Shown piece by piece: positions 5,813-28,379 of a stretch of DNA of 48,416 bases. Numbering within the stretch: position 1 is the stretch's first letter; every line of letters starts with the position of its first letter. A program made the position numbers and the translations under genes. This DNA is from Planctomycetota bacterium (GTDB lineage Bacteria; Planctomycetota; UBA11346): positions 1-48,416 of the forward strand of contig JAYVTR010000246.1 in the NCBI GenBank assembly GCA_043788625.1, written 5' to 3'. Under the pieces are notes generated by a model that saw only the letters and a list, made by a program, of their open reading frames with translations, ran no database searches and was not told the DNA's origin.

Positions 5813-5826
5813 CGTGGCCCTGAACC

Positions 5827-6810: not shown

Positions 6811-8712
6811 ATGCTGAAACCACGCCCTTGCTCCTTCACTGCCGACAAACTGCGTGCCGTGCCCTTCACTGCCGTCAGCTTCGAGGATGATTTCTGGGCG
6901 CCCAAACAGCTCAGCAATCGTACCCAGGCGATTCCCATGAATGAAGCCCAGTGCCGCAAGAGCGGACGCATCGATGCGTTTCGCCTGGCCTGGAAACCAG
7001 GCCAGCCGCATGAGCCGCATATCTTTTGGGATTCGGATGTGGCCAAATGGATCGAGGCCGCGAGTTATACATTGTCGAGCCATCCTGACCACGCACTGGA
7101 CGAGCGCTTAGATGCGGTCATCGCGCTGATCGCCGCGGCGCAACAGGCTGACGGTTATCTCAATACCCATTTTCAGGTGGTGCGTCCGGAGGCGCGGTGG
7201 AAGCATTTCAACGACCATGAACTGTACTGCATCGGTCATCTGATCGAGGCTGGCGTCGCGCATCATGCGGCAACCGGTAAGCGGTCCCTGTTTGATGTTT
7301 GCCTACGCCTGGCAGATTGCGTCGCTGCTGCATTCGGTCCGCAATCAGGGCAGCGGCCGGGCTATTGCGGTCACGAGGAAATCGAGTTGGCGCTGGTGAA
7401 GCTTGCCGATGCCAGCGGCGAAGAACGTTATCTCGCGCTGGCGCGTAACATGGTTGATGCGCGCGGTACGCAGCCACATTATTTCGATCAGCTCAAGGCG
7501 GAAGCCGGTGGCGATGGCATTTATAGCCAGGCGTTTTGCAAGGATAACTACCGGTATTTTCAGGCGCACGTGCCGGTGCGCGACCAGCGTGAAGTCGTCG
7601 GACACGCGGTGCGGGCGATGTACCTCTACTGTGCCATGGCTGATCTGGCCGCGGCCGATGGTGATCGCGAATTGGCGGCGGCGGGGCTCGCCCTGTGGCG
7701 CCACGCGACGTGCCGCCTGATGTATGTGACCGGCGGCATCGGTTCGTCGCATGCCAACGAAGGCTTCACCTTTGATCACGATCTGCCGAATGAGACGGCG
7801 TATTGCGAAACCTGCGCCTCAGTGGGCCTGATCATGTGGGCGCAGCGATTGTTCCTGCAAGAGCGCTCTTCCGAGTATATCGACGTCATGGAGCGGGTGC
7901 TCTACAATGCTGCCATCGCCGGTGTCAGCCTCGATGGCCAGCGCTTCTTCTATGTCAATCCGTTGGCGAGCCTCGGCGGCCACCATCGTCAGGAATGGTT
8001 CGATTGCGCCTGCTGTCCGCCGAATATTTCCCGTCTGTTGGCGAGTCTGGGCAGCTATGTTTATGCGCGGGACGAAAGCAGCCTGTACGTGAATCTTTAT
8101 GGAGGATCACAAGCACAGTTCATGTTGGGCAGCGTGACGGTAGCGATTACCCAGACCACCGATTACCCATGGAATGGGCGGGTTGCCTTGCACGTGGAGC
8201 CGCAGTCGCCGCACCGATTCCATCTGCGCCTGCGTCGCCCCGGTTGGTGCCGCTCTTGGCTGGTGAGTATCAATGGCCAACCAGTCCAAGCGATCGAAGA
8301 GGCAGGATACGTGGTTTTGGAACGTACCTGGAAGACCGGTGATCGCGTGGTGTTCGACCTCGCGATGCCGATGGAGCGCGTCCATGCCGATCCACGCATC
8401 CGCCATGATGCGGGGCGACTGGCCATGCAGCGTGGGCCAGTGGTCTATTGCTTTGAAAGTTGCGACAACGGCAGCGACCTGGATGCCTTGGTGATGTCCG
8501 CTACCGCCGAGGTGCAGGTGGAAGGTGATCCACATGCAATGGGCGGTGTCGTTCGTCTCAGCGTGCCGGGTTGGCGTGAGCAGCCGTTTGTCGACCAGCC
8601 CTATGCATTCGGCAAGCCGCTGCGCCAGCCGGTGACGCTGTCGGCAATTCCGTACTATGCGTGGGATAACCGCTCGCCAGGTGGCATGGCGGTGTGGATG
8701 AGATGGGCGTGA
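6811..8712 (+). CDS. Glycoside hydrolase family 127 (DUF1680, beta-L-arabinofuranosidase-like)
   Basis: 'GHEEIELALVKL', 'CETCASVGLIMW' and 'CACCPPNISRLLASLG' form the Cys-rich Zn/nucleophile region typical of HypBA1-type GH127. The start is ambiguous (6766 or 6811). Confidence 0.8.
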   Translation: MLKPRPCSFTADKLRAVPFTAVSFEDDFWAPKQLSNRTQAIPMNEAQCRKSGRIDAFRLAWKPGQPHEPHIFWDSDVAKWIEAASYTLSSHPDHALDERLDAVIALIAAAQQADGYLNTHFQVVRPEARWKHFNDHELYCIGHLIEAGVAHHAATGKRSLFDVCLRLADCVAAAFGPQSGQRPGYCGHEEIELALVKLADASGEERYLALARNMVDARGTQPHYFDQLKAEAGGDGIYSQAFCKDNYRYFQAHVPVRDQREVVGHAVRAMYLYCAMADLAAADGDRELAAAGLALWRHATCRLMYVTGGIGSSHANEGFTFDHDLPNETAYCETCASVGLIMWAQRLFLQERSSEYIDVMERVLYNAAIAGVSLDGQRFFYVNPLASLGGHHRQEWFDCACCPPNISRLLASLGSYVYARDESSLYVNLYGGSQAQFMLGSVTVAITQTTDYPWNGRVALHVEPQSPHRFHLRLRRPGWCRSWLVSINGQPVQAIEEAGYVVLERTWKTGDRVVFDLAMPMERVHADPRIRHDAGRLAMQRGPVVYCFESCDNGSDLDALVMSATAEVQVEGDPHAMGGVVRLSVPGWREQPFVDQPYAFGKPLRQPVTLSAIPYYAWDNRSPGGMAVWMRWA

Positions 8713-13737: not shown

Positions 13738-13778
13738 CAAAAAAATACCCCGCGCCGTTTGGCGCGGGGTATTTTTTT
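13738..13778. terminator. Bidirectional rho-independent terminator
   Basis: An 11-bp perfect stem TACCCCGCGCC (13746-13756) / GGCGCGGGGTA (13761-13771) with a GTTT loop. It has an A-run upstream and a T-run (13772-13778) downstream. It sits between convergent fusA and the HxlR gene. Confidence 0.85.
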
Positions 13779-13788
13779 AAACTTCGCT

Positions 13789-14181
13789 TCAGGGCGTTTG
13801 AACACCCGCAGTTGCGGAAGTGGCCAAGCAGGGCGCATTATTATCTTTTTGTGCGATCTCCAGGTACGTCAGTCCCCAGTCGCGGATGGCGAAAAGCAGC
13901 GGACACAGGGATCTGCCAGCGGTGGAAAGCGCATATTCGACGCGCAATGGTGTGGCGTCCGCGGACACTGAGCGATTGATCAGCTGAGCGGTTTCTAGCT
14001 CCCGTAATTGACGGGTGAGCATGCGTTGAGTCACAGCTGGCGTTAAACGGCGTAGATCACTGAAGCGCTTCGGTTGGTCGATCAAGTGGAAGAGGATGAC
14101 GCTTTTCCATTTTCCACCAATCACTTCAAGGCATGCCTCGACCGGGCAGCCAAGATTTTTTCCATAATGTTGATGTGCCAT
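13789..14181 (-). CDS. HxlR family transcriptional regulator
   Basis: 'CPVEACLEVIGGKWKSVILFHL...PKRFSDLRR..P.VTQRMLTRQLRELE...LI.R' is the canonical HxlR winged helix. Confidence 0.85.
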   Translation of the reverse strand: MAHQHYGKNLGCPVEACLEVIGGKWKSVILFHLIDQPKRFSDLRRLTPAVTQRMLTRQLRELETAQLINRSVSADATPLRVEYALSTAGRSLCPLLFAIRDWGLTYLEIAQKDNNAPCLATSATAGVQTP

Positions 14182-14299
14182 AAGTCGCGGCGCCTGTTTG
14201 CTGTAGGAGGTTTCAGGGAGTATACTAACAGCTAAAAATGTGCCTACTGGTAATACGTGCAGCTTTTATAAAACGACGTCCCCCAAAGAAAGGCCTACT

Positions 14300-14809
14300 A
14301 TGTACGCTGCCGTTGTAACATTTTCACTTCTCGGATTCATCTGGGGGCTCACCTCATGTGAGTTGGCGGCAGAAGATAGCCTCACCATATCAAAATCGCA
14401 ACTTTACAGTGCGACTCCTGAACAAGTGTGGGGTCTGATCAAGAATTTCGATGCCATCCAAAAGTGGCATCCGGCAATCGCAACGAGCGAAATCACCAAG
14501 AACGGTGCCAATAAGATCGGTACCGTGCGTGTCTTGACCACCAAAGACGGAGCGCAAATCACCGAAGAGCTGCTGAAGTACGAAGACAAGGGGATGTCGT
14601 ATCAATATACGATCAAGAAGTCGCCGATGCCGCTGACCGATTTCGTTGCCGACATCACCATTGAAAAAGTCACCGGTGGGGCGCTGTTGGTGTGGAATGT
14701 GACGTGTAAAGCGGCGGCAAATACGCCGGATGAGAACGTGCGCGCCATGGTGGGCGGCTTTCTCGATGCCGGGATGGCAAAGATCAAAACGCTGCTCCAA
14801 GACCATTAA
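14300..14809 (+). CDS. SRPBCC (START/Bet v1-like) family protein, probable lipoprotein
   Basis: 'QVWGLIKNFDAIQKWHPAI...' and 'YQYTIKKSPMPLTDFVADITIE' fit the SRPBCC pattern. The N-terminal 'LLGFIWGLTSC' is lipobox-like. ATG at 14300 with AAAGAAAGG upstream. The gene is divergent from the HxlR gene. Confidence 0.7.
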   Translation: MYAAVVTFSLLGFIWGLTSCELAAEDSLTISKSQLYSATPEQVWGLIKNFDAIQKWHPAIATSEITKNGANKIGTVRVLTTKDGAQITEELLKYEDKGMSYQYTIKKSPMPLTDFVADITIEKVTGGALLVWNVTCKAAANTPDENVRAMVGGFLDAGMAKIKTLLQDH

Positions 14810-14850
14810 AAAGCGTATGCGCCAGCCGCTGACACGGTCGGCGAACGGAA

Positions 14851-14866
14851 AAAACGTTTTCGAAAA
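14851..14866. promoter_or_regulatory. Two overlapping 10-bp palindromes (AAAACGTTTT / TTTTCGAAAA) upstream of the island operon
   Basis: Read directly: AAAACGTTTTCGAAAA lies 63 nt upstream of the AsnB-like ATG, in the 119-nt gap after the SRPBCC gene. The operator or promoter role is inferred only. Confidence 0.3.
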
Positions 14867-14928
14867 TTGCAGGCATGCAGGACCAGCATTTTCGGACCAA
14901 CTTCTCAACTGCGAAACTAAGGGTTTCT

Positions 14929-16932
14929 ATGTGCGGCGTCACGGCGATTTGGGATATCAATAGTATCGATCGGGATAAGCGCGAGCGCATCGTTAAGATG
15001 ACCAATGCGCTTGCCCATCGCGGACCCAACAGCAAAGGCGCCTATGTGTCGCCAACATGTGCCCTAGGGCATGCACGGTTATCGATCATCGATATAGCCA
15101 GTGGCCAGCAGCCGTTTTCAATTGCTGGCTATACGATGGTCTTTAATGGAGAAATTTACAATTATATTGAATTGAAAGACCAGCTGACAGCACGCGGCCA
15201 TGTATTCATGACTGCCAGCGACACGGAGGTAGCCCTGAGATGCTACATGGAATATGGTGCTGATTGTTTCGCAAAGTTTAATGGCGAATGGGCAATCATT
15301 ATCTATGACAAGGTACGCACCAGATTGATAGTGGCCCGCGACCGCTACGGCATCCGCCCATTGTTCACCACCCAAGATCATCACGGCGTCGCTTATTTTT
15401 CGTCTGAGATAAAGTCATTCGATTATATTGAAGGATTTTCCAGGCAGTACGATCAGCAGGCCTTGATCGAACATGGGATGTTGTGGAATACTATTGGTGA
15501 GACGACTGTTTATAAGGGGGTTCAGTCGCTTTCCGCAGGTCATTATCGGGTTTATGAGAACAGCGACCATTTCACAGACCATCTCTATTATGAAATTGGC
15601 GAATCACTCGGGATGCGGCCAGAGCCGTCGTTTTCAGACGCTAGCGAACTCACCAGAAGCTTATTAAAAGACGCTATACGCCTGCGTTTGCGCACTGAGG
15701 TGCCCTACGGGGTTTACCTCAGTGGTGGAATCGATTCCTGCATCATAGCTGGGTTGGTCAAGGAACTGGCGCCCAGCGGTTTCAGTACCTATTCGGTGGC
15801 CTTCGATAATAAATCATTTGATGAAAGCTCTTATCAATCGCTGATGGTCGATCGGTTGCAATCACATCACCATCAGGTGGTGATCGATAACTCAGCGATC
15901 GAAGATAATCTGCAGCGGGTGGTACGGCACGTCGAGCGGCCTTTGTTTCGTACGGCTCCAGTGCCAATGTACCATCTGGCGAGGGCGGCGGCGAGCGACG
16001 GCATAAAAGTCGTGCTGACTGGTGAAGCAGCGGATGAGATATTCTGTGGCTATGACACTTTTAAAGAGGCGAAACTGTTAGAGTTTTGGGGTAAAGACAT
16101 CGCTTCTGAAATACGCCCGCACCTCATCAAGCGACTGTACCCGCATTTGGCCCATTATGGCAGCGGCAAACAATATGGCATGATGAAGATGTATTATCAA
16201 GGAATGGTCAAGAAAGTTGACCCGCTCTTTGGTGCCATGGCCATTCGTATGCACAATAACGAAGCTGTATTGGGACTGATGAATGGCGATTTCATCGGTG
16301 GTTATAGCCTGGATGCCACCCGCGAGAAAATGAAGTCGGTTTTGCCGAAAAACTGGGAAAAATTCTCAATATTACAAAAAACATCTTTCCGCGAGATGAA
16401 GACCCTGCTGGAGGGCTATTTATTGTCGTCACAAGGCGATCGGATGACCATGGCCAATGGTGTAGAGGGGCGTTATCCGTTTCTGGACCACCGCGTGGTC
16501 GAGCATGCGATATCCTTGCCTGATCGCTATAAGATGCCTGGATTCAACCAGAAATATATCCTGAAAAAGGCGTTCTCAGACCTCGTTCCGCACGCGATCG
16601 TGAATCGGCCTAAGCAACCCTATCAAGCACCGGACATCTATCCATTCATCGACGCAGACGGAAAGGTGAAGGAGTCGGTGGCCGGGTTTCTTTCCAAAAC
16701 GGAGATAGAAAATGCCGGCGTATTTGAATATAAAATGGTCGAGCAGTTTCTTGAAAAGATCAAGAGCCGTCGCAATGCTCAGTACGGGTACCGCGACAAT
16801 ATGTTGTTTGTATTCATGTTGACGACGCAAATGGCAATTAAACAGCGTGAACCGATCTACTCTACTTTTGATGAAGCTGAATTCCCAATACACCAAGAAC
16901 CGGAGCTTAGTTTAACTATGAGGCATTCATGA
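14929..16932 (+). CDS. Asparagine synthetase B-like glutamine-dependent amidotransferase (667 aa)
   Basis: 'MCG' gives the N-terminal Cys nucleophile. 'HRGPN', 'NGEIYN' and 'SDTEV' are GATase class II blocks. 'VYLSGGIDS' is the PP-loop of the synthetase domain. Confidence 0.9.
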   Translation: MCGVTAIWDINSIDRDKRERIVKMTNALAHRGPNSKGAYVSPTCALGHARLSIIDIASGQQPFSIAGYTMVFNGEIYNYIELKDQLTARGHVFMTASDTEVALRCYMEYGADCFAKFNGEWAIIIYDKVRTRLIVARDRYGIRPLFTTQDHHGVAYFSSEIKSFDYIEGFSRQYDQQALIEHGMLWNTIGETTVYKGVQSLSAGHYRVYENSDHFTDHLYYEIGESLGMRPEPSFSDASELTRSLLKDAIRLRLRTEVPYGVYLSGGIDSCIIAGLVKELAPSGFSTYSVAFDNKSFDESSYQSLMVDRLQSHHHQVVIDNSAIEDNLQRVVRHVERPLFRTAPVPMYHLARAAASDGIKVVLTGEAADEIFCGYDTFKEAKLLEFWGKDIASEIRPHLIKRLYPHLAHYGSGKQYGMMKMYYQGMVKKVDPLFGAMAIRMHNNEAVLGLMNGDFIGGYSLDATREKMKSVLPKNWEKFSILQKTSFREMKTLLEGYLLSSQGDRMTMANGVEGRYPFLDHRVVEHAISLPDRYKMPGFNQKYILKKAFSDLVPHAIVNRPKQPYQAPDIYPFIDADGKVKESVAGFLSKTEIENAGVFEYKMVEQFLEKIKSRRNAQYGYRDNMLFVFMLTTQMAIKQREPIYSTFDEAEFPIHQEPELSLTMRHS

Positions 16933-17201
16933 ATAATCTAAAACTGACAGGCGAAGACATCGAAGGCATGGTTATCGAATTCATCTGCCGAAACTTCATG
17001 GTCTCAAATCCGGATTCCATATGCCGGTCGAAGTCGCTTATCGATCAGGGAATCATAGATTCCTTCGGCCTGATCGAGATTGCGGCGTTCATGGACTCCA
17101 AGTTTTCAGTTACAGTCGAGGATATGGACATGCACAGCGGTAACTTCGGATCTGTCATTTCCATGACTGATTTCATCGCCAAGAAACTCGGTTCATCATG
17201 A
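16929..17201 (+). CDS. Free-standing acyl/peptidyl carrier protein (phosphopantetheine-binding)
   Basis: 90 aa. 'LIDQGIIDSFGLIEIAAFM' contains the (D/I)DS-hydrophobic carrier-protein serine motif. ATGA overlaps occur at both ends (16929-16932 and 17198-17201). Confidence 0.75.
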   Translation: MNNLKLTGEDIEGMVIEFICRNFMVSNPDSICRSKSLIDQGIIDSFGLIEIAAFMDSKFSVTVEDMDMHSGNFGSVISMTDFIAKKLGSS

Positions 17202-18262
17202 CCCAAAGTACATTCCTGCGGTGCAGTTCATGCGCTCTGACAAGCGGATTTCCAGGTATTGAATTCGACGATCAGGGGGTCTGCTCGCTATGCCGTGAGA
17301 AAGCTTTTTATAGCGCCTCCGATGCAATGATCGACCAAGCGCGCGAGCGTATTGGACAGATGTTCTCGTTCGGCAGCGATCGTGGAGAGTATGATGCCAT
17401 CGTCTGCTACAGTGGCGGTAAAGACAGTTCGTATACGCTATCTTTGGCGGTAAATAAATACAAATTGCGAGTACTCGCATTCACCCTAGATAATGGCCAT
17501 CTGTCGTCATACGCGCTCGACAACATCAACCGTGTGGTCGACAGTTTAGGCATTGATCACATAATGGTCCGCCCAGCCCAGCCGCATATGAAGGCGATCA
17601 TCAAGGCCAGTGCCTTGTACCCCATCTACAATCAGAAGACGTTGATGCGCATCTCATCGATTTGCCAGTCTTGCATTTCGATCGTCAATATCACCGCCAT
17701 CAAGTTTGCTCTGGAAAAAAAGGTTCGCTTCATTCTCGCAGGATTCACCTTGGGGCAGATTCCAACCAATGCCGTGGTCTACCAGAACAACTACAATTTC
17801 TTTAAAGAGAGCCGTAAGAGTTCTTTGGATAAATTGCGCAGTCATACCGGTGATTATGTTGACCGCTACTTCTGTCTCGATGAATCACTATTAAAAGAGG
17901 TCAAGGAATTCCCGTATAATATAAATCTGTTGTGCCTGGAAGACATCAGTGAAGACCAGATCGTCGAAGAAGTAAAGAAAATGGGTTGGCGTTCGCCTAA
18001 GGACGTAGATGGCTGCTCATCCAATTGCCGTCTGAACACGTTCAACAATATCGTTCATAAAAAAATCCATGGCTACAATCCGTACGAGCTCGAGCTCAGT
18101 CATTTGATTAGAAAAGGCCAGATCGGACGTGATCAGGCGATTGAAAAACTGGAAGACCAGCACGACGGCATCTATAGGAAGATTCTTGGTCAACTGGATC
18201 TGAATGAGGGTGATATCGATCAGGCGATCATCCGTAATTCAGAGGAATTCAAGGTTTCATAA
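17198..18262 (+). CDS. PP-loop ATP-pyrophosphatase of the N-acetyl sugar amidotransferase (WbuX/WbpG/PseA-like) family
   Basis: N-terminal 'CSSC...FPGIEFDDQGVCSLC' is a Zn-ribbon. 'YDAIVCYSGGKDSS' is a PP-loop. The C-terminal 'YELELSHLIRKGQIGRDQAIEKLE' matches the conserved tail of this family. Confidence 0.75.
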   Translation: MTQSTFLRCSSCALTSGFPGIEFDDQGVCSLCREKAFYSASDAMIDQARERIGQMFSFGSDRGEYDAIVCYSGGKDSSYTLSLAVNKYKLRVLAFTLDNGHLSSYALDNINRVVDSLGIDHIMVRPAQPHMKAIIKASALYPIYNQKTLMRISSICQSCISIVNITAIKFALEKKVRFILAGFTLGQIPTNAVVYQNNYNFFKESRKSSLDKLRSHTGDYVDRYFCLDESLLKEVKEFPYNINLLCLEDISEDQIVEEVKKMGWRSPKDVDGCSSNCRLNTFNNIVHKKIHGYNPYELELSHLIRKGQIGRDQAIEKLEDQHDGIYRKILGQLDLNEGDIDQAIIRNSEEFKVS

Positions 18263-18263
18263 A

Positions 18264-18545
18264 ATGTATGTGATCATATCTGGGGACGGCATAAACCCGG
18301 GAAGTTTCACCGCCACCTTGCGCGGTGAAATTCCCACCATTGGCCAATATGGTGGACGAGTGTTGGCGAAAAATTGCCAGTTCAGTTGTGAGCTGGGTGA
18401 TGGGACTCCAGAAATTTTGGCTATTCAACAGTGGCCAGACAGAGGGGCATTCAGCGCCTGGTGTTCATCTACGGAATATCAGCGGTGGGCTCAGCTGCAT
18501 GCGGATGCCTGTGATGTAAGTATCCTGGTGATGGAAGAGACATGA
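18264..18545 (+). CDS. DUF1330 domain protein
   Basis: 93 aa. 'QYGGRVLA' and 'ILAIQQWPDRGAFSAWCSSTEYQRWAQLHADACDVSILVME' follow the DUF1330 (dimeric alpha/beta barrel) pattern. Confidence 0.7.
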   Translation: MYVIISGDGINPGSFTATLRGEIPTIGQYGGRVLAKNCQFSCELGDGTPEILAIQQWPDRGAFSAWCSSTEYQRWAQLHADACDVSILVMEET

Positions 18546-19699
18546 AGCGTATCGCCATAACCGGATCACTTGGTACCGGAAAAAGTACCCTCGCCAAAGA
18601 GCTGTCACGGCGTACGGGCAGGCCCCTGGACCACGCTCGGCAAATGCGTGAGATTTTACCTGAGATGTTTCCAGGCAAGCAGCTCATGGAATGCTCGCCC
18701 TGGCAAATATTCCAAATGTTCACGGCCCGCATGAGTGAAAGGGCCATGTCGGTTGCGGGCATGCCGTGTGAACTGGTTTCGGATGGATGCGCACTCAATG
18801 ATTGGGCATTCCTCTATGCACGCTGTTTTTCTGATCCGCATGGGAAAGGAAAATTGATTGCCGAGGTCGGCTACCGCGAGGCTGTCGAAAACCTGTTGCC
18901 GTCGATTAGGCGCGCCCTGAAGCAGCAATACAGCCACATGGTGCTCTGCGGCATCGATTTCGGCATCGTCGCCGACGGCCAACGGCCAACCTCGGAAAAG
19001 TTCAGGAAGATCGCCAATGATCTCATCGTGAAGGAGTTGGCAACGCTCGATGTGCATACCGTGACGGTCAATGGCGACATCGAAGGTCGGCTAAAATTAT
19101 GCCAGGCCGGCTTGGGAATCCACCTGTCCAAAACCTATACCGCTCTTTTATGCAATTGCCCAAGCGATGAGGGGCAATTGATGAATTATGATCAGATAGA
19201 CGACATCCTTGGTGAAAAAAGTTCGCGTTTTTTTTCAAATGGATTTCGCAAGGTGAACCACCATTTGCGCAATGTCGAAGTGAATAAGGTCGGTAAGTAC
19301 ATATCTGGCGTCATTGATATCGAAGCGCGTGACGATTGGTCAATTCGCAAGACCGGCCAAGAGCCCTATCACGTGACCAATATTGATGCCTTGCTTATCG
19401 CCGGTCAATTCGCCCAGGTGCTGATGTTTGCCATGGACGGGATTAGACGAGGAGAGAACGGCAACATGTGGGTGCGCCATGTCGAACTAGCGACTATCAA
19501 CAAAGTCGAGAGCCTCAGCGGCATCGATTTCCATATGCGCTGTGAAGACAGCAAGATCATCACCAAAGACGGTGAGAGATGGCATCTGGCGACACTGTCG
19601 TGCGAGATGGCGGGCGGGAAAATAAAGATGATCAATTACAAGGTCTGCTATCAACTGAAGCCGCAGGCTAATAAAGAGCTTTGCATCGCCAATGAATAA
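18542..19699 (+). CDS. P-loop NTPase (AAA_28/NadR-kinase-like N-terminal domain) fused to an unassigned ~190-aa C-terminal domain
   Basis: Walker A 'ITGSLGTGKSTLAKEL' lies at the N-terminus. The C-terminal half ('HVTNIDALLIAGQFAQVLMFAMDG...WVRHVELATINKVE...IDFHMRCED...') has a long helix followed by several beta-like segments, and I cannot assign a family. ATGA overlap with the DUF1330 gene. Confidence 0.6.
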   Translation: MKRIAITGSLGTGKSTLAKELSRRTGRPLDHARQMREILPEMFPGKQLMECSPWQIFQMFTARMSERAMSVAGMPCELVSDGCALNDWAFLYARCFSDPHGKGKLIAEVGYREAVENLLPSIRRALKQQYSHMVLCGIDFGIVADGQRPTSEKFRKIANDLIVKELATLDVHTVTVNGDIEGRLKLCQAGLGIHLSKTYTALLCNCPSDEGQLMNYDQIDDILGEKSSRFFSNGFRKVNHHLRNVEVNKVGKYISGVIDIEARDDWSIRKTGQEPYHVTNIDALLIAGQFAQVLMFAMDGIRRGENGNMWVRHVELATINKVESLSGIDFHMRCEDSKIITKDGERWHLATLSCEMAGGKIKMINYKVCYQLKPQANKELCIANE

Positions 19700-20906
19700 G
19701 TCGGTTATCTTCTCAATCATGGCCGAGGGGGTCCTCTCGCGCCTGAGCTTTGGCATGATCGGTCTGGCACTGCCTCTTTATGCCGAAAAAATCGGTATGG
19801 GGATTCAAGAGATTGGCATTCTCCTGTCGTTTCACTTCATCACCGAGATGTCCCTGAAGCGTTGGGTCAGTGCCAAAATCGATGTCATCGGCTTGCGTGC
19901 GGGCTTGTCGATCGCCTTATTTTTACGCTCGACCGTAGGCGCCCTGTTGCTGTTTTCGCTTACCTCGTGGCATCTGTTTGCGATCCGTGCTTTGCATGGC
20001 GCTTCAGAATCAGGACGTGAACCGGCGATCAACGCGCTCATGGCATCAACTGGCGGGATCAAGAAGTCCGGAGTCATCTTCGGTTGGTATAATTCATTGC
20101 GTGCCGCCGCCGGATCGCTCGGCAAGGCTCTGGCGAGTTTCCTGCTGATTTTACCGCTCAGCGGTTTCACCTCCATATTCTGTTTATCATTCATCGTCTC
20201 ATTCATCTGCGCCGTCGTAGTCACGGTCTTGTTGAAGAACAAGATCCCAGCAAGTAGTGCGGTAGACATTCCCAACTCACCAGCGCCGAAGGATGAAAAG
20301 CATGCGCTGGTGTTGCCGGCTTCACCGGCACCCACCATGAAAATGGTTTCCCTTTACGGTATCCTGATCAGTGCTTCGGGATCGATGCTCAATCTCTTGT
20401 TCCCGCTCATTGCGCTCAAATACGCGGGCATCAATGAGGCTGCACTCGGTACGATCTACCTGGCGGCGTCAGTCGTGGTGATGGTATCAGGACCATTCTT
20501 TGGCTGGCTTACAGATAACCTGAGTGGCAAGGCCGTCATGGCTACCAGAGGTGTATGCAATATCGCCTCGTCACTGACGATCATAAGTTATCCCTCATTT
20601 GCCGGCATGCTCGTCAGCGCCGTTTTGGATGATGCCGGCAAGGCCGCCTTCAGGTCTGCCTGGGGCAGTGTCTTGGCGAAGATAAGCGTCGGTAATCCCA
20701 GTGGGCGAGTGGCAACCGCCGGCAAGCTCGGGCTTTCCGAAAATGTCGGCGAGGTCTGCGGTCCGATCATCGGCGGTCTGATCTGGGGCTTATGGGGATT
20801 GCCGTTGGTGATGGTGGCACGTATCGCCTTGGCGTTCTCTTCCGAGATGGTGCTCGCGCAAATAGTCAAAAATGAGATGTCCATACGCGAAAGAAAAGCT
20901 GAGTAA
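19692..20906 (+). CDS. MFS transporter
   Basis: 404 aa with about 12 hydrophobic segments. The loop 'SLKRWVSAKIDVIGLR' resembles the MFS TM2-3 motif. 8-nt overlap with the upstream gene. Confidence 0.8.
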   Translation: MNKSVIFSIMAEGVLSRLSFGMIGLALPLYAEKIGMGIQEIGILLSFHFITEMSLKRWVSAKIDVIGLRAGLSIALFLRSTVGALLLFSLTSWHLFAIRALHGASESGREPAINALMASTGGIKKSGVIFGWYNSLRAAAGSLGKALASFLLILPLSGFTSIFCLSFIVSFICAVVVTVLLKNKIPASSAVDIPNSPAPKDEKHALVLPASPAPTMKMVSLYGILISASGSMLNLLFPLIALKYAGINEAALGTIYLAASVVVMVSGPFFGWLTDNLSGKAVMATRGVCNIASSLTIISYPSFAGMLVSAVLDDAGKAAFRSAWGSVLAKISVGNPSGRVATAGKLGLSENVGEVCGPIIGGLIWGLWGLPLVMVARIALAFSSEMVLAQIVKNEMSIRERKAE

Positions 20907-20907
20907 C

Positions 20908-22206
20908 ATGTTTAATTTTCGTAGCGTTGCACCACTGGTTGCGACGTTGTTTTTTCTTGCCTCTGGCTTCGCCGAGGAAGCTGCTTCTGAAAAATCTACT
21001 TCTGAAAAAGTCGCGTCTGAAAAACCTGCCTCTGAAAAACCTGCCTTTGAAAAAACAGGTACGGACATTCCACCGCCGAGCTTGCCGTCGACTCCCATAC
21101 CGAAGTTCTACGACAAGATCACGGTCACCCTGCAGGCTCGTATCGATTATGGCGGTTTAAATCCAGCTGCTGACGACACGCATTATCAAGATTCGCTCAA
21201 TTCTTATATCCGTCATTTCCGCATCGGAGTGCAAGGGGTATGCTACCTCAAGGATCTATTCTATGATGTGGCGCTCGAAGGCGATTACACCGACAAGGCG
21301 CCCAACAACACCGCTTACCAATCGAACGCCCCCAATGAGGATACCGATGTACCGGTTACGGTAAGCGAAGCGTTCATCAAATATAAGGTCAATAGTGCTT
21401 TTGAAATACGCTTCGGCAAAGCTAAGTTGCCATATTCCCGGGTCTACCTGACCAGCTCGAGCCTGCAGCTGATCATGGACCGGCCGTTGTTCACTACCGA
21501 CCTCCGTGATTTCTTTCACCGCTATGTGCATACCGGCGTTCAAGTCTCGGGTGGGGTGTATGATGACAGCATCGTGTATTACCTGAGCGTCAGCGATGGC
21601 TTCAAAAGCGGTAATCGCATTGGCGATACTGCGGGACAGATGAATCATCTCACCGTCAGTTCTGCGGGCCCTTTAACAGTGGCACGTATCGAGGTTTCGC
21701 CCAGTGGCTGGAACGAGAAAAAGCGCAACGATTCGCATCTCGGCGAAGGCCGGCATCTCACGCTGGGGGTCAATGACGGCTATCAAGGCGCTATCCGTTA
21801 TAATGAGACCGATGGCGAAGAGAGCCGCAACTTGCTGGGCGCCGATCTGTCTTTTCATTATGAAAGCCTGACTTTGCAAACTGAATATGACCTGTGGAAG
21901 AACCATACCACCGTCAACGACCAGATAGATGCGGCAGGTTTTTATGTGCAGGGCGGGTGGTTTTTCAAAACCATCAATGTCGAACCGGTGCTGCGTTATG
22001 AGATCTTCGAGGAAAACAAAAACCTTGCGGATGCGACCACCACGGTCCTTACCCCGGGGGTTAACTGGTATGTATCAGGGCATGACTTGAAAGTCGCCTT
22101 CAACTGGTCGCGCTATTTGTATTCGGCGGACTCGGCAGGCGGTTATGGCAGCTCATTGAATCGAAATGTTTTTGAGCTGGGAGTGCAGCTGAAGCGGTCG
22201 TTCTGA
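20908..22206 (+). CDS. Outer-membrane porin, phosphate-selective porin O/P (OprO/OprP)-like, with N-terminal SEK pentapeptide repeats
   Basis: Signal peptide 'MFNFRSVAPLVATLFFLASGFA'. Alternating beta-strand pattern with 'GFYVQGGWFF', 'VEPVLRYE' and 'NWYVSGHDLKVAFNWS', and a terminal aromatic residue. The start is 1 nt after the MFS stop. Confidence 0.7.
   Translation: MFNFRSVAPLVATLFFLASGFAEEAASEKSTSEKVASEKPASEKPAFEKTGTDIPPPSLPSTPIPKFYDKITVTLQARIDYGGLNPAADDTHYQDSLNSYIRHFRIGVQGVCYLKDLFYDVALEGDYTDKAPNNTAYQSNAPNEDTDVPVTVSEAFIKYKVNSAFEIRFGKAKLPYSRVYLTSSSLQLIMDRPLFTTDLRDFFHRYVHTGVQVSGGVYDDSIVYYLSVSDGFKSGNRIGDTAGQMNHLTVSSAGPLTVARIEVSPSGWNEKKRNDSHLGEGRHLTLGVNDGYQGAIRYNETDGEESRNLLGADLSFHYESLTLQTEYDLWKNHTTVNDQIDAAGFYVQGGWFFKTINVEPVLRYEIFEENKNLADATTTVLTPGVNWYVSGHDLKVAFNWSRYLYSADSAGGYGSSLNRNVFELGVQLKRSF
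20983..21057 (+). repeat. In-frame 15-nt tandem repeat x5 (consensus GCNTCTGAAAAANNN) encoding ASEKS-TSEKV-ASEKP-ASEKP-AFEKT
   Basis: Read directly. The units begin at 20983, 20998, 21013, 21028 and 21043, in frame with the porin ORF immediately after its signal peptide. Confidence 0.9.
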
Positions 22207-22260
22207 AAAGGTTCATTTATCCGCTGACTGTTTATTTGCGAACGGCTATTTATCCACGAG

Positions 22261-24313: not shown

Positions 24314-26755
24314 ATGACCATCGCCCTGTTGCCGCTGCCTGTTTCCTGCGTCGTGGGTGCGGGGGCAGGCTTTCGGCTGCTGCCGAGCACGCGCATCATC
24401 GTCGGCGCCGGTGCACGACCAGAAGCCGAATTGTTGGTGGAATTGCTGACCCCACAGGTGGGCTTCGTCCTCGAAATCATCGATGACGGCGCGCCGCCGG
24501 CGGTTGCTGACCAGCCGCAGATCCGCATCATGCGTTCGGCAGCCAGCGAAGCTGGCCAGCCGGAAACTGGTCAGCAGGAAGCTTATCAGCTGACGGTGGC
24601 GGCCAGCGGCGTCGAGTTGCGCGCCGCGGCGCCGGCGGGCTTGGCGTGGGCAGCGCAGACGCTGCTGCAGCTGCTGTCGGTCGAGGCCGGCGGAGCGTGC
24701 CTGGCCGCGGTCGAGATTGATGATGCGCCGCGCTTCAGCTGGCGCGGAGCGATGCTGGATCCAGCGCGGCATTTCTGGACGGTCGCCGAAGTCCTGCGGT
24801 TCATCGACGTCATGGCCCGGCAGCGCCTCAACCGCCTGCATCTGCATCTCACCGACGATCAGGGATGGCGCATTGAAATCCGCCGGTATCCGCGCCTGAC
24901 CTCGGTAGGAGCCTGGCGCACGACCACGATCGAGGGCCATGCCATGTTGCAGCCACCCCGGTTCGACGGCATCGCACACGGCGGTTTCTACAGCCAGGAT
25001 GAGATCAGGACCATCGTCGCCTATGCCGCACGCCGGCACATTACCGTGGTGCCCGAGATCGATCTACCGGGACACATGCAGGCGGCGATTGCCGCCTATC
25101 CATGGCTGGGCGACGACGGCCAACCGTGCGACGTATTCCCCTGCTGGGGCGTGAATCCGCACATCCTCAATGTCGAAGAGCGCACGCTGCGTTTTCTCGA
25201 GGACGTGCTCGCCGAAGTCGTCGAGCTGTTCCCTTCGCCGTGGATTCACGTCGGTGGTGATGAAGCGGTGAAGAACGAATGGCAAGCGAGCCCACGCGTA
25301 CAGGCGCGCATCGCCGCCCTGGGCGTCACGGACGAGCACGGCATGCAGAGCCATATCATCAAGCGCATGGACACGTTCCTCAGCGCGCGGGGTCGGCGTC
25401 TGCTGGGCTGGGACGAAATCCTCGAAGGCGGCCTGTCGCCCAATGCAACGGTGGTGTCATGGCGTGGTGTTACAGGTGGCATCGAGGCGGCCCGGCAAGG
25501 TCACGACGTGATCATGGCGCCGCAGTCGCACACCTATTTCGACCATTACCAGCATGTCGATTATACGGCTCAGCCATTGGCCATCGGCGGCATGCTGCCA
25601 TTGGAGAAGGTCTATGCTTTCGAGCCCATACCGCCTGAACTCAGCGCTGAGGAAGGCCGCCATGTGCTGGGGGCCCAGGGCCAGTTGTGGTCGGAATACA
25701 TTACTTCGTACGCCCAGCTTGAAGCCATGGCTTTTCCGCGTTTGTGTGCCCTGGCCGAAGTCCTGTGGTCGCCGAAGGCGACACGTGATTGGCCGGCCTT
25801 CCAAGACCGCCTGGCGGTGCATCTGCAGCGCTTGGCTGCCCTGGGCGTGAATTATTTCAAGCCGCCGGCGGCTGGCCCGAGGCAGACCGCCATCACCTGG
25901 CGGCCGCGTGAGAATGATCGCCCGGCTCTGGTGGTCTTGGCGGCGGGCTCGCGCCTGGGCGGTGAGCGGCACCTGGCGCAGGTCGGGCCGCATGCCGAGA
26001 CCATCCTCGACTTCACCGCCTATGACGCCAAGCGCTGCGGCTTTGTAGAAATCATTTTAATTGTGCGCCCCGACAACCAGGCATTGGTCGCCCAAACCGT
26101 CGGCAATCGCCTGGCCCGGCAGCTGCCGGTGCGCTATGTGCTGCAGGACATGCACGAGCCCTTGCCGGGAGTGCAGACGCCAGGGCGCAGCAAGCCGTGG
26201 GGTACCGCGCACGCCGTAGCCTGTGGCCTCCGCGGTTTGCAACGCCCGTGCGGCGTGGTCAGTGCCGACGAGTGGTATTCGGGCGCGGGCATGCGCTCTT
26301 TGGCGCAGGTGCTGGCGCGCGGCGATCGTTCATCGGTGCAAGTGGCTTACACCCTGGCGCGCACCGTGAATCAACATGGGCCGGTCAGCCGCGCCTTGTG
26401 CACCATCAATGAGCATGGCGAATTACAGACCATCACCGAGACCGCCGACATCGTCAGCGGCGCCCTCGCACCCGAAACGGCGCTATCATTGGATCTGTGG
26501 GGCTTCCAGCCCAATTGCTATGCGCCTTTCATCGCTGACGTCGAAACATGGATCCGCCAGGCGCAGACTTCTGCCGACGAGTGCCAGCTGACGGCGATGG
26601 TGATGGCGAGTAGTGCACGCCACGGCTGGAAGACGCGCGCTGTGGTGACCGGCGGCGACTGGGCGGGTCTGGCCCATCACGCGGATCATGCGGCAGTGCA
26701 GGCGCGCCTGGCTCAGGCCACCGAAGCCGGTGATTATCCGCAGCCGTTGTGGTGA
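24314..26755 (+). CDS. Fusion protein: GH20 beta-N-acetylhexosaminidase (aa ~1-520) + sugar-phosphate nucleotidyltransferase-like domain (aa ~535-813)
   Basis: GH20 blocks: 'RFSWRGAMLDPARHF', 'LNRLHLHLTDDQGWRIEI' and 'HVGGDEA' (catalytic D-E). C-terminal blocks: 'LVVLAAGSRLGGERHLAQVGP', 'ILDFTAYDAKRCGF.EIILIVRP' and 'KPWGTAHAV' are typical of an uncharacterised NTP-transferase family. It is one uninterrupted ORF. Confidence 0.8.
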   Translation: MTIALLPLPVSCVVGAGAGFRLLPSTRIIVGAGARPEAELLVELLTPQVGFVLEIIDDGAPPAVADQPQIRIMRSAASEAGQPETGQQEAYQLTVAASGVELRAAAPAGLAWAAQTLLQLLSVEAGGACLAAVEIDDAPRFSWRGAMLDPARHFWTVAEVLRFIDVMARQRLNRLHLHLTDDQGWRIEIRRYPRLTSVGAWRTTTIEGHAMLQPPRFDGIAHGGFYSQDEIRTIVAYAARRHITVVPEIDLPGHMQAAIAAYPWLGDDGQPCDVFPCWGVNPHILNVEERTLRFLEDVLAEVVELFPSPWIHVGGDEAVKNEWQASPRVQARIAALGVTDEHGMQSHIIKRMDTFLSARGRRLLGWDEILEGGLSPNATVVSWRGVTGGIEAARQGHDVIMAPQSHTYFDHYQHVDYTAQPLAIGGMLPLEKVYAFEPIPPELSAEEGRHVLGAQGQLWSEYITSYAQLEAMAFPRLCALAEVLWSPKATRDWPAFQDRLAVHLQRLAALGVNYFKPPAAGPRQTAITWRPRENDRPALVVLAAGSRLGGERHLAQVGPHAETILDFTAYDAKRCGFVEIILIVRPDNQALVAQTVGNRLARQLPVRYVLQDMHEPLPGVQTPGRSKPWGTAHAVACGLRGLQRPCGVVSADEWYSGAGMRSLAQVLARGDRSSVQVAYTLARTVNQHGPVSRALCTINEHGELQTITETADIVSGALAPETALSLDLWGFQPNCYAPFIADVETWIRQAQTSADECQLTAMVMASSARHGWKTRAVVTGGDWAGLAHHADHAAVQARLAQATEAGDYPQPLW

Positions 26756-26770
26756 TTCCGCTTTGCCGAT

Positions 26771-27100
26771 TTACTTGCCGATGAAAGCCGTCGGGTGGCC
26801 GAACAGATAGGCGGCCACGCCCCAGGCGACCATCCAGGTGACGAACTTGAAGATGACGAAGGACCAAAACAAACCGTGGTTGGCGAAATCCAGGCGCGGA
26901 TCAGGGCCGCCATGCGCCACCTGTTTGAGGAGGGCGACCTTGATGAGTCCGACGCAACCTTTGCCGAAGCCGAAGACAATGAGGAATAAAGCCACCCACG
27001 CGGCCAGGGGCGGGCCGATCTTGGCCACATGGCCGATCACACCGCTGACGGCGATGAGCAGGGCTAGCAGCAGACAGATGTAGGGAAGGCGTTGCAGCAT
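26771..27100 (-). CDS. Small membrane protein (109 aa, 3-4 TM), unassigned
   Basis: ATG start and strongly hydrophobic helices. The gene is convergent with the GH20 fusion gene. Confidence 0.45.
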   Translation of the reverse strand: MLQRLPYICLLLALLIAVSGVIGHVAKIGPPLAAWVALFLIVFGFGKGCVGLIKVALLKQVAHGGPDPRLDFANHGLFWSFVIFKFVTWMVAWGVAAYLFGHPTAFIGK

Positions 27101-27188
27101 GGGCGGGCAGGGTGCGGACCGATCAGCCGAACAAAAGGCGGAAAGCAGCTAGGCGAACGCTAGGTGACCACTTCTGAGACGTTGTGGT

Positions 27189-28346
27189 CTATTTGGCTGC
27201 CTGGACGAGGTACGCATCAGCCACCATGACGTGGTCGCCAATGTCGAAACGTTCGCCAAGAGCGATCTCGAGTCGCAGGCTGGTGATGCCATGCAGATCC
27301 AGGTCGAGTATCGCTGGCGCTTCGCCACCGCGTACACGGTCGCTATGCCACAGGGTTTTACCATCGCCCGATAGTGTCACCGGGCAATCGCCTTCGGGGG
27401 CGACCGCATCAGCAATACCGAGCAGGCCGCGCAGGCGCACAAAGTGTTGATTTACATTCCACGTCAGGGTCGCAGCGCTGTGCACGGTGATGCCCTTGCT
27501 GTAGCGGACGCCACCCAGCAGCAGCGGGCCGCCATCCAAGGCGTGGTCGCGTTGCCACGGCCACACCACGTCGAAAGCGCCTTTTTCCACCACCGCTGCC
27601 GGTACTAGGTCAGCGAGCCAGGTGCGTCGCCCGCCATCGATACGGATGCGTCGTCCGCCCAGCACGGTAGCGTCGATTGCCTGGTGGCTGGCGGCCAATT
27701 GCAGGCCGTTGGCAGTAGCCAGCAGGCGCACCGGTGGGCGGTTGGCATCGACGCTGACCAACAGCGCCATGCCGTTGGGGCGAGTGCTGTCCTGTGCCAG
27801 GCGGACACCTTGGATATCGTTGAAAGCCAAGGCCAGGGGTTCGGGGTCGAGCGACGTCGCCAACAGCAATTTGCCATCGCGCAGACCTTGCACCCGACCG
27901 TCCAGCGGACCGCTGGCGACCAGCACCCGATCGAGCCCGGCGCTGGCAGCGGCGGTTTCATTGATGCCCCAGCCGCTCACGGCCGACAAGGGCAGGTCAT
28001 GGGTGCCGAAGGGCGAAACGATGTGCAGGGAATCGTGAGCCCCGGCGTTGACGCTGGTAACCGGCAGCCAGCTGCCATCGGTAAGCCACAGGCCCAGACC
28101 GGCGGCGGGGACTTCGGGTTCGCCCTCACCTTTGGCGGTGGTTCCCAGCTCGAGCCAGTCGGTATCGCGCAATGGCAGCAGGGCCTTACCATCGCCGAGC
28201 ACGGTATCGGCGGTAAGAGTCACCGTGGTGGCGGTCAGCGGCGCGCCTTCGAGGGGTGCGACGGTGGCGGCATGGGCGGCGGAGGCACCCACCGACAGCA
28301 AGAGGGCGCCCGCCAGGCTCAGGCAGTTAAACGGAAATGGCGACAT
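27189..28346 (-). CDS. Secreted protein with C-terminal NPCBM-like (carbohydrate-binding) domain
   Basis: Signal peptide '...LSLAGALLLSVGASAAHA'. The C-terminal 'YSKGITVHSAATLTWNVN..FVRLRGLLGIAD......CPVTLSGDGKTLWHSD.....EAPAILDLDLHGITSLRLEI' follows the NPCBM/NEW2 pattern. ATG at 28346; GTG at 28352 is also possible. Confidence 0.6.
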   Translation of the reverse strand: MSPFPFNCLSLAGALLLSVGASAAHAATVAPLEGAPLTATTVTLTADTVLGDGKALLPLRDTDWLELGTTAKGEGEPEVPAAGLGLWLTDGSWLPVTSVNAGAHDSLHIVSPFGTHDLPLSAVSGWGINETAAASAGLDRVLVASGPLDGRVQGLRDGKLLLATSLDPEPLALAFNDIQGVRLAQDSTRPNGMALLVSVDANRPPVRLLATANGLQLAASHQAIDATVLGGRRIRIDGGRRTWLADLVPAAVVEKGAFDVVWPWQRDHALDGGPLLLGGVRYSKGITVHSAATLTWNVNQHFVRLRGLLGIADAVAPEGDCPVTLSGDGKTLWHSDRVRGGEAPAILDLDLHGITSLRLEIALGERFDIGDHVMVADAYLVQAAK

Positions 28347-28379
28347 CAGCACACAGCTCGTATGGAGGCCTAGTTCGGC

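Follow-up and report, generated by a model that had tools for sequence, protein, structure and literature searches.

The enzymes encoded by a seven-gene operon in a 48,416-nucleotide stretch of DNA from a Planctomycetota bacterium (GTDB lineage UBA11346; GenBank assembly GCA_043788625.1, contig JAYVTR010000246.1) have their closest described counterparts in several separate pathways. The whole stretch is called the window, and its operon encodes, in order, an AsnB-type amidotransferase, a stand-alone acyl carrier protein (ACP), a PP-loop enzyme, a DUF1330 protein, a kinase/hotdog fusion, a major facilitator superfamily (MFS) transporter and a porin (genes 1 to 7; Table 1). In the gladiolin pathway, GbnC converts succinyl-GbnA to succinamyl-GbnA in a glutamine-dependent reaction (bioRxiv 10.64898/2026.04.24.720606), while in glutarimide pathways triads of an acyltransferase (AT), an ACP and an AsnB homologue are proposed to make malonamyl-ACP (PMC7756379); a PP-loop partner is mentioned in neither paper. 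In the closthioamide pathway, substrates bound to the peptidyl carrier protein CtaE are thio-amidated by CtaC, which Dunbar et al. (PMC6772006) showed to be a PP-loop enzyme of the Fe-S AANH kind; D77/S78 mark its PP-loop, and it requires C154, C157 and C284. NASAT enzymes are recognized by two motifs, a CxxC-Xn-[GN]xCxxC tetracysteine and an SGGxDS PP-loop (PMC10607449). AvrD condenses beta-ketoacyl thioesters with xylulose, and MmyD of the methylenomycin pathway is proposed to condense acetoacetyl-MmyA with a pentulose, malonylation being borrowed from primary metabolism (PMC12593393). In the same pathway, MmyX and MmyK are annotated as kinases and MmyP as a phosphatase (Table S1, PMC12593393). 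For the fusion of a kinase to a hotdog domain, Spt6-Spt9 of salinipostin-like clusters offers a precedent (PMC8209734).

The operon is read here as making and exporting a small nitrogen-bearing, possibly sulfur-bearing molecule by an ACP-templated pathway that uses neither nonribosomal peptide synthetases (NRPSs) nor polyketide synthases (PKSs). As modelled below, this pathway is put forward tentatively, with confidence that falls a little short of even.

Organization of the operon and its Thiomargarita counterpart

Seven open reading frames (ORFs) on the plus strand span 14929-22206, and both the ORF list and the sequence place them, and every junction between them, where the original prediction had put them. 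Start and stop codons overlap as ATGA at 16929, 17198 and 18542. Genes 3 and 4 are separated by a single nucleotide (nt) at 18263 (TAA-A-ATG), as are genes 6 and 7 at 20907 (TAA-C-ATG), while genes 5 and 6 overlap by 8 nt at 19692-19699 (ATGAATAA). Since the gap is 1 nt or less at six consecutive junctions and no convincing internal terminator was found in the seven-gene block, the block looks like a single translationally coupled operon, as had been proposed, and not like a chance arrangement. Pfam and NCBIfam profile searches bear out the family labels first given to the proteins, namely Asn_synthase with GATase_7, ACP-like, WbuX-like, DUF1330, AAA_28, MFS_1 and Porin_O_P, with qualifications for genes 3 and 5 that are taken up below.

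The operon has a counterpart in a second, unrelated genome, that of Candidatus Thiomargarita nelsonii (locus L010). The order there is AsnB, ACP, PP-loop, AAA_28-AvrD fusion, MFS and Porin_O_P, so that six of the seven window genes are present in the same order. Identity to the window proteins is 34% for the 388-residue fusion, 43% for the MFS protein and 36% for the porin; tblastn found neither a DUF1330 gene nor an SRPBCC gene in this locus. The GC content of L010 is that of the surrounding genome. Only in the window and in L010 is the PP-loop gene followed by a kinase-hotdog fusion, an MFS gene and a porin gene. Conservation of gene order in another genome had been named beforehand as evidence against an accidental arrangement, and L010 supplies it. 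The Thiomargarita operon has a nitroreductase gene (L010 738-1340) immediately upstream of it, and genes of this kind have been reported from some salinipostin-like AfsA clusters (PMC8209734).

The amidotransferase, carrier protein and PP-loop cassette

Genes 1 to 3 form a conserved, widespread cassette. Homologues of gene 3 number more than 620, at about 50-62% identity; they come from many phyla, and all are named hypothetical or misnamed. When one genome per species is kept, 56 loci remain, and tblastn with the window proteins finds the trio adjacent in every one of the roughly 50 loci that have enough flanking sequence, across at least eight phyla. Identities to the window proteins are 43-49% for the AsnB homologue, 39-53% for the ACP and 48-58% for the PP-loop protein. 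The description of the operon as an orphan in the original prediction is not tenable in view of these 56 species-level loci and of the six syntenic genes in Thiomargarita. The expectation that the trio acts together on a tethered intermediate agrees with its completeness in all loci with enough flank. Since this three-way co-conservation is strict, it suggests that the AsnB homologue makes an amide on which the PP-loop enzyme then acts.

The usual setting of the cassette differs from that in the window. In 56 of 57 non-redundant loci the trio has NRPS or PKS genes in its neighbourhood, at a distance of about 10 kb or less, and L010 is the only trio locus besides the window in which they are absent. 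The gene directly 3' of the PP-loop gene encodes, in most loci, an NRPS condensation-adenylation-thiolation (C-A-T) module or a stand-alone condensation domain. Accessory genes that recur near the trio encode an alpha/beta-hydrolase (25 loci), a methyltransferase (15) or a phosphopantetheinyl transferase (PPTase; 9). The original prediction noted the lack of NRPS, PKS, glycosyltransferase, adenylation-domain and PPTase genes, and this holds within the low-GC island that contains the operon (Table 1).

In 23 of the 57 genomes (all within loci L009-L064; for example L033, L034, L038, L051, L014 and L015) the trio and its NRPS/PKS genes are found inside polysaccharide export loci with Wza, Wzz, Wzx, Bac_transf and GT4 genes. 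This arrangement suggests that the trio contributes there to a hybrid peptide/polyketide substituent or anchor on surface glycans. The window operon might likewise decorate the cell envelope, with the ACP-bound unit esterified to a sugar or lipid precursor of lipopolysaccharide, capsule or a periplasmic glycan, and with the MFS protein and the porin serving precursor traffic. One variant of the trio, which has a stand-alone condensation domain with DegT and FemAB-like genes, is in keeping with such a role, as is the action of NASAT relatives on O-antigen sugars. However, neither the island nor the Thiomargarita locus encodes a glycosyltransferase, flippase or polymerase or has any sugar-nucleotide gene, the AvrD family is known for products that diffuse, namely butenolides and syringolides, and an MFS protein with an anion porin is an odd route for envelope polymers. 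Envelope decoration is accordingly regarded as improbable.

Genes 1 and 2

By its sequence, gene 1 belongs to the class II, N-terminal nucleophile (Ntn), glutamine amidotransferase/AsnB family. It scores 461.6 bits with TIGR01536 (cut-off 267.1), 133 bits with PF13537 and 290.6 bits with PF00733, and the exact 667-residue product is already on record. The gene starts with ATG TGC GGC at 14929, which gives Met-Cys-Gly with Cys2 as the Ntn amidotransferase nucleophile. This Cys2 is kept in 52 of 54 AsnB homologues of the cassette, while SGG[IV]DS is found in all 54, as SGGIDS at residues 265-270 in gene 1. Gene 2 has no Pfam match, PF00550 included, and its NCBIfam ACP matches (AmcB and the OlsHI ACP; scores of 37 and 31 bits) all fall below cut-off. 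Its homologues have weak PF00550 matches, and in its I-D-S-[F/M]-G motif Ser45 is invariant in 45 of 45 homologues.

In GbnC of the gladiolin pathway and in GdsD, SmdH and ChxD of the glutarimide pathways, as in the window, an AsnB homologue is encoded beside a stand-alone ACP. The GbnC/GdsD-type homologues act on the free carboxylate of succinyl- or malonyl-ACP, and gene 1, which is likened to them by gene context, may by analogy amidate an ACP-bound dicarboxyl unit. The described systems differ from the window in having a dedicated loading acyltransferase (GbnB/GdsB) and a downstream trans-AT PKS, and in lacking the PP-loop partner. An Acyl_transf_1 domain is absent from both the island and L010.

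The PP-loop enzyme

The best curated model for gene 3 is WbuX (TIGR03573), which it matches at 121.1 bits, below the cut-off of 203.2. The earlier label 'WbuX-type' is therefore right as to the nearest curated model, but it overstates the match, and proteins 54% identical to gene 3 are listed homologues of CtaC. In its sequence gene 3 satisfies both NASAT motif criteria, even though it falls short of the curated family score: an N-terminal tetracysteine (C9, C12, G27-V-C29, C32) and an SGGKDS PP-loop at residues 72-77, both invariant in the family. The closest solved structure is the Legionella enzyme LpNASAT (8wex), by sequence (E=4.4e-13) as well as by full-length fold (TMq 0.66), followed among folds by the [4Fe-4S] thiolases NcsA and TtuA, the Fe-S enzyme LarE, and YcfA. 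Five further cysteines, C156, C159, C246, C273 and C277, are also invariant, and they fall where the profile alignment left LpNASAT unaligned. Gene 3 has in common with the NASAT, WbuX, WbpG and PseA enzymes its zinc tetracysteine motif, its SGGKDS PP-loop and its overall fold. Gene 3 differs from them in its sub-cut-off score, its extra invariant cysteines, a carrier protein as partner instead of a sugar, and the lack of a glycan context in the window. No glycan biosynthesis gene lies beside gene 3 in the island or in L010; its constant partners are the ACP and the AsnB homologue.

A relation to CtaC emerges from a published list. Table S5 of the closthioamide report gives the top-100 CtaC homologues by BLAST, among them WP_095366310.1 (Pseudoalteromonas sp. 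NBT06-2), WP_044618538.1 (Gynuella sunshinyii) and an Alteromonadaceae Bs31 protein, all three carrying the flag 'NRPS/PKS' (PMC6772006). By exact-sequence look-up, the PP-loop protein of cassette locus L029 is WP_095366310.1 and that of L031 clusters with WP_044618538.1, and both are 54% identical to gene 3. Because such close relatives are listed CtaC homologues, amidine formation is no more likely than thio-amidation. D76/S77 of the gene 3 PP-loop and C156xxC159 are spaced as in CtaC, with the CxxC about 80 residues past the PP-loop in both proteins. The succession of PP-loop, CxxC-helix, strand, strand and Cys pair (C273/C277) in gene 3 also parallels that of E. coli TtcA; the Fe-S ligand sites compared were C154, C157 and C284 of CtaC and C122, C125 and C213 of TtcA. 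CtaC works on carrier-tethered amides, and the ACP gene adjacent to gene 3 in essentially all loci is consistent with a tethered substrate for gene 3 too; Fe-S binding by gene 3 is predicted from cysteine spacing. The substrates would differ: CtaC acts on the backbone (secondary) amides of a beta-alanine oligomer, and gene 3 would act on a primary amide made by the AsnB homologue. No AsnB is noted in the available parts of the CtaC papers.

If gene 3 were instead an enzyme of the WbuX/NASAT type, it would convert the ACP-bound amide to an amidine (3-amino-3-iminopropanoyl-ACP) with ammonia from the AsnB glutaminase domain, and the architecture of the pathway would be unchanged. The best curated model, the presence of both NASAT motifs and the position of LpNASAT at the top of the sequence and fold rankings all favour this chemistry, and so does the gene content, in that no sulfur donor is encoded nearby while a glutaminase is always encoded next door. 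The score below the 203-bit family cut-off, the five invariant cysteines outside the aligned part of LpNASAT, the constant company of a carrier protein near NRPS rather than sugar-nucleotide genes, and the retrieval of close relatives as homologues of CtaC, a proven thioamide synthetase, speak against it. In addition, no HisH/HisF-like partner, presumably typical of WbuX loci, was seen. An amidine version of the whole pathway is somewhat unlikely, though it is the foremost of the rivals.

Gene 3 might also dehydrate the AsnB-made amide by way of an AMP-imidate, as do QueC, ArtA/NitB, CalN and PesC, to give the nitrile cyanoacetyl-ACP. Enzymes that convert amides to nitriles with ATP are established, some of them from PP-loop families (PMC13060819), and cyanoacetyl would be an excellent Knoevenagel donor for an AvrD-type domain. 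The division of labour between an AsnB-made amide and PP-loop dehydration parallels ArtA and CalN, which carry out the second step alone. Weak QueC matches to gene 3 occur in Pfam, NCBIfam and the PDB, but they are limited to the PP-loop region and lie far below cut-off; the extra cysteine set is not reported as needed by nitrile synthetases, ArtA and CalN are not among the top folds, and direct homology evidence to either is missing. The nitrile route is thus given a low probability.

The kinase/hotdog fusion

Gene 5 occupies 18542-19699 and was described in the original prediction as a P-loop fusion. The P-loop kinase is indeed present, as an AAA_28 domain at residues 3-183, but the C-terminal half was missed: residues 207-361 form a hotdog domain of the AvrD family, whose PF05655 match (72.4 bits) stands well above the cut-off of 25, while the AfsA model is not matched. 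Residues 4-185 are 31% identical over 190 residues to the AAA ATPase of the methylenomycin cluster, MmyX (E=5e-29), and the Walker A motif is intact (GSLGTGKST). The hotdog aligns with the first MmyD repeat at 98.5% hhalign probability (E=1.8e-15). In an AlphaFold2 model of the fusion (pLDDT 81), the kinase domain resembles deoxynucleoside kinases, the ribosylnicotinamide kinase of NadR (NadR-RNK) and TMP kinases, and there is one hotdog only, resembling FabZ, FabA, HadBD and thioesterases. The window domain covers positions 163-322 of the AvrD profile, its second half, while the domains of the Thiomargarita fusion and of the homologue P0002 cover positions 3-149, the first half. By homology, the MmyX- and MmyD-like gene 5 ties the operon to butenolide, syringolide and methylenomycin chemistry, a connection that the original prediction overlooked. 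Its hotdog is accordingly taken to be a putative off-loading domain that would act like an acyl-ACP transferase or butenolide synthase.

The methylenomycin system of S. coelicolor plasmid SCP1 shares with the window a stand-alone ACP, an AvrD-type hotdog, an MmyX-type kinase and an MFS gene. The MFS gene that adjoins the methylenomycin cluster is taken here to be the exporter mmr. In both systems the ACP would present an activated 3-oxo-type acyl unit, and malonylation of the ACP, which is borrowed in the methylenomycin pathway, is assumed to be borrowed in the window too. In the window, however, the kinase and one hotdog are fused, and there is no KASIII, HAD phosphatase, second kinase or redox tailoring enzyme; the acyl unit, made by Claisen condensation in methylenomycin biosynthesis, would come from the AsnB homologue and the CtaC-like enzyme. 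The host of the window operon is also a diderm with a dedicated porin, unlike the methylenomycin system.

AvrD (the syringolide synthase of Pseudomonas syringae) and the phosphorylated butenolide synthases of the AfsA type (A-factor; the gladiostatin PBS domain) are hotdog enzymes that move a 3-keto acyl thioester onto xylulose or dihydroxyacetone phosphate to form butenolides, and the gladiostatin pathway likewise opens with an AT/ACP/AsnB malonamyl-ACP triad. Compared with these synthases, the window has one repeat, probably no true beta-keto donor, and no PKS linking amidation to release. Spt6-Spt9 of Dietzia timorensis joins a phosphotransfer enzyme to a butenolide-synthase hotdog in a pathway whose product keeps its phosphate. 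In that case the partners are a nucleoside diphosphate kinase, not a P-loop AAA_28 domain, and AfsA, not AvrD, and the salinipostin hosts are actinomycetes with long-chain acyl products. The classical avrD operon of P. syringae was considered as a model and rejected, its downstream genes (phosphoglycerate mutase, sulfotransferase and others) being unrelated to the window operon.

Full-length fusions of this kind are rare, with only about eight in a HMMER scan of 1.84 billion representatives; the remaining matches are two-repeat AvrD/AfsA-like proteins or proteins with AAA_28 only. The fusion alone does not predict an operon, because those of L002, L065, L066 and L140 stand alone with no trio, MFS or porin gene. 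Some of the stand-alone fusions sit among housekeeping genes. The one on the archaeal contig L066 (9974-11152) lies beside genes for Rpb7 and ribosomal protein S24e. In the fusion homologue P0139, Trp stands where all relatives have Gly (for example GTYWTWKST), which suggests systematic mistranslation or recoding in the source assembly.

AvrD and AAA_28 are also encoded by separate neighbouring genes, as in metagenomic clusters that also have MCAT, PPTase, KASIII, ACP and HAD genes, in Stigmatella aurantiaca, and on Bacillus and Streptomyces plasmids. In the Streptomyces locus L144, which is the methylenomycin cluster, AvrD/MmyD is followed, in this order, by the AAA ATPase, KASIII/MmyC, ACP/MmyA, HAD, an ATP-binding protein and an MFS protein. 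On the Ralstonia solanacearum megaplasmid, AAA_28, AvrD and HAD phosphatase genes follow in that order between transposases. In strain PSI07 (L143, 8926-11319) only one stop separates the AAA_28 ORF from the AvrD ORF, which shares its reading frame, as if a fusion had recently split or had yet to form.

The transporter, the porin and the DUF1330 protein

The last two genes of the operon are predicted to provide passage across both membranes, with gene 6 carrying the product across the inner membrane and gene 7, as a putatively anion-selective porin, across the outer membrane. The PF07396 match of gene 7 (100.6 bits, cut-off 20.9) spans profile positions 2-367 of 370. Right behind its signal peptide, five 15-nt tandem units (20978-21069) encode an (A/P)SEK-type pentapeptide repeat. 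The best NCBIfam model for gene 6 is the organophosphate family PgtP. It is plausible, as proposed earlier, that the product is phosphorylated and has its own route out by way of the MFS protein and the porin.

Transport might run in the opposite direction: the MFS protein and the OprO/P-type porin would then import an external organophosphate or ketose, which the fusion and the cassette would alter in the course of salvage, detoxification or signalling. Classical uptake systems include both the OprO/P porins and the PgtP/UhpT-like MFS family, and kinase-hotdog fusions stand alone among housekeeping genes elsewhere. The PgtP match is weak, though (35 bits; cut-off 408), and the characterised carrier-protein cassettes cited here are all biosynthetic. 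In the methylenomycin cluster, an MFS gene taken here to be the exporter mmr accompanies these same types of enzyme. Uptake is considered very improbable.

The co-occurrence of the trio with a DUF1330 gene, which the original prediction suggested looking for, stands for the trio only. In tblastn searches no other trio-bearing locus, L010 included, has a DUF1330 gene, which is confined to the window version.

Proposed pathway

From the operon anatomy, the domain identities, the cassette conservation, the Thiomargarita synteny and the homology of gene 5 to MmyX and MmyD, all of which are established, the steps of a pathway may be inferred. Host enzymes would phosphopantetheinylate the stand-alone ACP and load a dicarboxyl unit, the most economical guess being a malonyl group supplied through the malonyl-CoA:ACP transacylase of the host. 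With glutamine and ATP, the AsnB homologue would then convert the free carboxylate to a primary amide, giving malonamyl-ACP. The CtaC-like PP-loop enzyme would adenylate the amide oxygen and replace it, with sulfur as the favoured substituent (an amidine or nitrile being the other options). The resulting 3-amino-3-thioxopropanoyl-ACP would mimic a beta-keto thioester and would have an acidic alpha-CH2. The hotdog of gene 5 would move the acyl group onto a ketose or triose (phosphate), at one of its hydroxyls, and a Knoevenagel-type ring closure may follow, while the fused MmyX-like kinase would phosphorylate the acceptor or the product. As a HAD phosphatase is lacking, the product is likely to remain anionic, and it would leave through the MFS protein in the inner membrane and then through the OprO/P-type porin in the outer membrane. 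The off-loading step would thus be swapped: the window would use an AvrD-type hotdog, forming an ester to a hydroxy-ketone, where other genomes place a condensation domain, forming an amide to an amine. The DUF1330 protein and the secreted SRPBCC protein encoded upstream would be accessories.

Several points weigh against this pathway. The island has no acyltransferase, adenylation domain, ketoacyl synthase (KAS) or PPTase, so that loading of the ACP is assumed; KAS and HAD, both absent from the island, are both present in mmy-like clusters. A donor of the malonamyl type would not be a true beta-keto thioester. The fusion has one hotdog repeat, against two in AvrD, MmyD and AfsA, and it is not intrinsically ACP-dependent, because stand-alone members exist, including one from an archaeon, an organism without ACP. 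The polysaccharide contexts of the cassette in 23 of 57 genomes hint that its product can be a glycan substituent. For gene 3, the closest solved relative by fold and profile is the amidine-forming NASAT, and a sulfur-donor gene is not recurrent near the trio. The relation of gene 3 to CtaC is traced through 54%-identical relatives in a published homologue list, and hhalign aligns gene 3 with E. coli TtcA in the PP-loop region only, at 55% probability, so that the Fe-S comparison rests on spacing. The direction of transport, taken as export, is not readable from the sequence.

Because the CtaC link runs through listed relatives and the TtcA alignment covers the PP-loop region only, the possible reactions of gene 3 are ranked as follows. 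Replacement of the amide oxygen by sulfur, which would give a primary thioamide, comes first, at a level just below an even chance. Formation of an amidine (NH) comes second and is appreciably less probable, and formation of a nitrile by elimination, ranked third, is improbable. The share left to a product other than these three is small, though slightly larger than that of the nitrile.

Genomic setting

The operon lies within a trough in GC content, at about 14150-22250, that was overlooked in the original prediction. GC content is about 0.50 (0.42-0.55) in the trough and about 0.62 (0.60-0.66) in the flanks, and this low-GC island was probably acquired horizontally. No tRNA, integrase or flanking direct repeats were found at the island borders, and no 'empty site' contig without the island turned up. 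The gene arrangement is the same in two other read sets/sequencing runs. Rfam gave no match in the window, so no RNA element or riboswitch was seen there, and a defence system was rejected, as the eight proteins gave no PADLOC match.

Table 1. Features of the operon and its immediate surroundings in the window
Feature	Coordinates	Strand	Basis
HxlR/MarR-type regulator gene, divergent	13789..14181	-	PF01638, 102.5 bits
Low-GC island with SRPBCC gene and seven-gene operon	14150..22250		Composition profiles
Secreted SRPBCC (Polyketide_cyc2) ligand-binding protein	14300..14809	+	PF10604, 95.9 bits
Gene 1, glutamine-dependent AsnB-type amidotransferase, 667 residues	14929..16932	+	TIGR01536, GATase_7 and Asn_synthase
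Gene 2, stand-alone acyl carrier protein, 90 residues	16929..17201	+	NCBIfam ACP models, conserved Ser
Gene 3, CtaC-like/NASAT-like PP-loop ATP pyrophosphatase	17198..18262	+	TIGR03573, motifs, fold
Gene 4, DUF1330 protein, 93 residues	18264..18545	+	PF07045, 37.9 bits; weak ABM match
Gene 5, N-terminal domain, MmyX-like AAA_28 small-molecule kinase	18542..19090	+	PF13521, 41.9 bits
Gene 5, C-terminal domain, single AvrD/MmyD-type hotdog repeat	19160..19624	+	PF05655, 72.4 bits
Gene 6, MFS transporter	19692..20906	+	PF07690, 88.6 bits
Gene 7, OprO/P-family porin	20908..22206	+	PF07396, 100.6 bits; signal peptide

The SRPBCC gene falls inside the GC trough and is possibly the first gene of the transcription unit. 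Its translation has a hydrophobic N-terminal signal-like segment, and no homologue was found by tblastn in the trio-bearing relatives, the Thiomargarita version included. The divergent HxlR gene, which is linked to SRPBCC and AsnB genes on the independent contigs L145 and L146, is a candidate for the local regulator. Between it and a convergent EF-G-like gene, a perfect 18-nt inverted repeat at 13739-13778 (AAAAAAATACCCCGCGCC / GGCGCGGGGTATTTTTTT) resembles an intrinsic terminator that works in both directions.

EF-G, PqiA and ThiD are encoded in the flanks, along with many glycoside hydrolases. The hydrolases at 2270-8712 and 24314-28352 include GH2 mannosidase-like, GH127 and GH20 enzymes and an NPCBM protein. 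The window proteins tested, flanks included, are singletons at 90% identity or are missing from the protein collection. The host seems to be a poorly sampled, glycan-degrading diderm of about 62% GC. Farther downstream, a 585-residue ORF at 30149-31906 has a class I tRNA-synthetase catalytic-domain match (residues 5-106) and an MMR_HSR1 GTPase match (residues 434-519), and is either an odd fusion or an artefact of ORF calling.

Implications

The gene combination, which the original prediction did not recognise as a described pathway type, is built of known enzyme kinds and is undescribed in the literature searched. Searches on AsnB with a carrier protein and a PP-loop enzyme, on thioamide with AsnB and NRPS, and on DUF1330 found the cassette described nowhere. 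In the searchable literature only the PP-loop member is noted, as 'CtaC homologues near NRPS/PKS', and its invariant AsnB partner goes unmentioned. The trio is strictly co-conserved yet without a characterised product. The operon and its Thiomargarita counterpart might even represent a new minimal thiotemplated class, in which a primary-thioamide mimic of a beta-keto unit is off-loaded onto a phospho-ketose by a fused kinase/half-AvrD enzyme, giving small phosphorylated thioamide (or amidine/nitrile) metabolites, butenolide-like or sugar-ester in kind, with an anion porin for release; this wider proposal is doubtful as it stands.

The window offers the simplest natural context, free of any megasynthase, for working out the chemistry of the cassette, and the locus, compact at about 8 kb and within reach of heterologous expression, is a good lead for genome mining. 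The kinase/single-hotdog fusion bears on the role of MmyX alongside MmyD in methylenomycin biosynthesis. If gene 3 does thio-amidate, the cassette would provide a route to a primary thioamide building block and so add to the very few non-ribosomal pathways known for thioamides.

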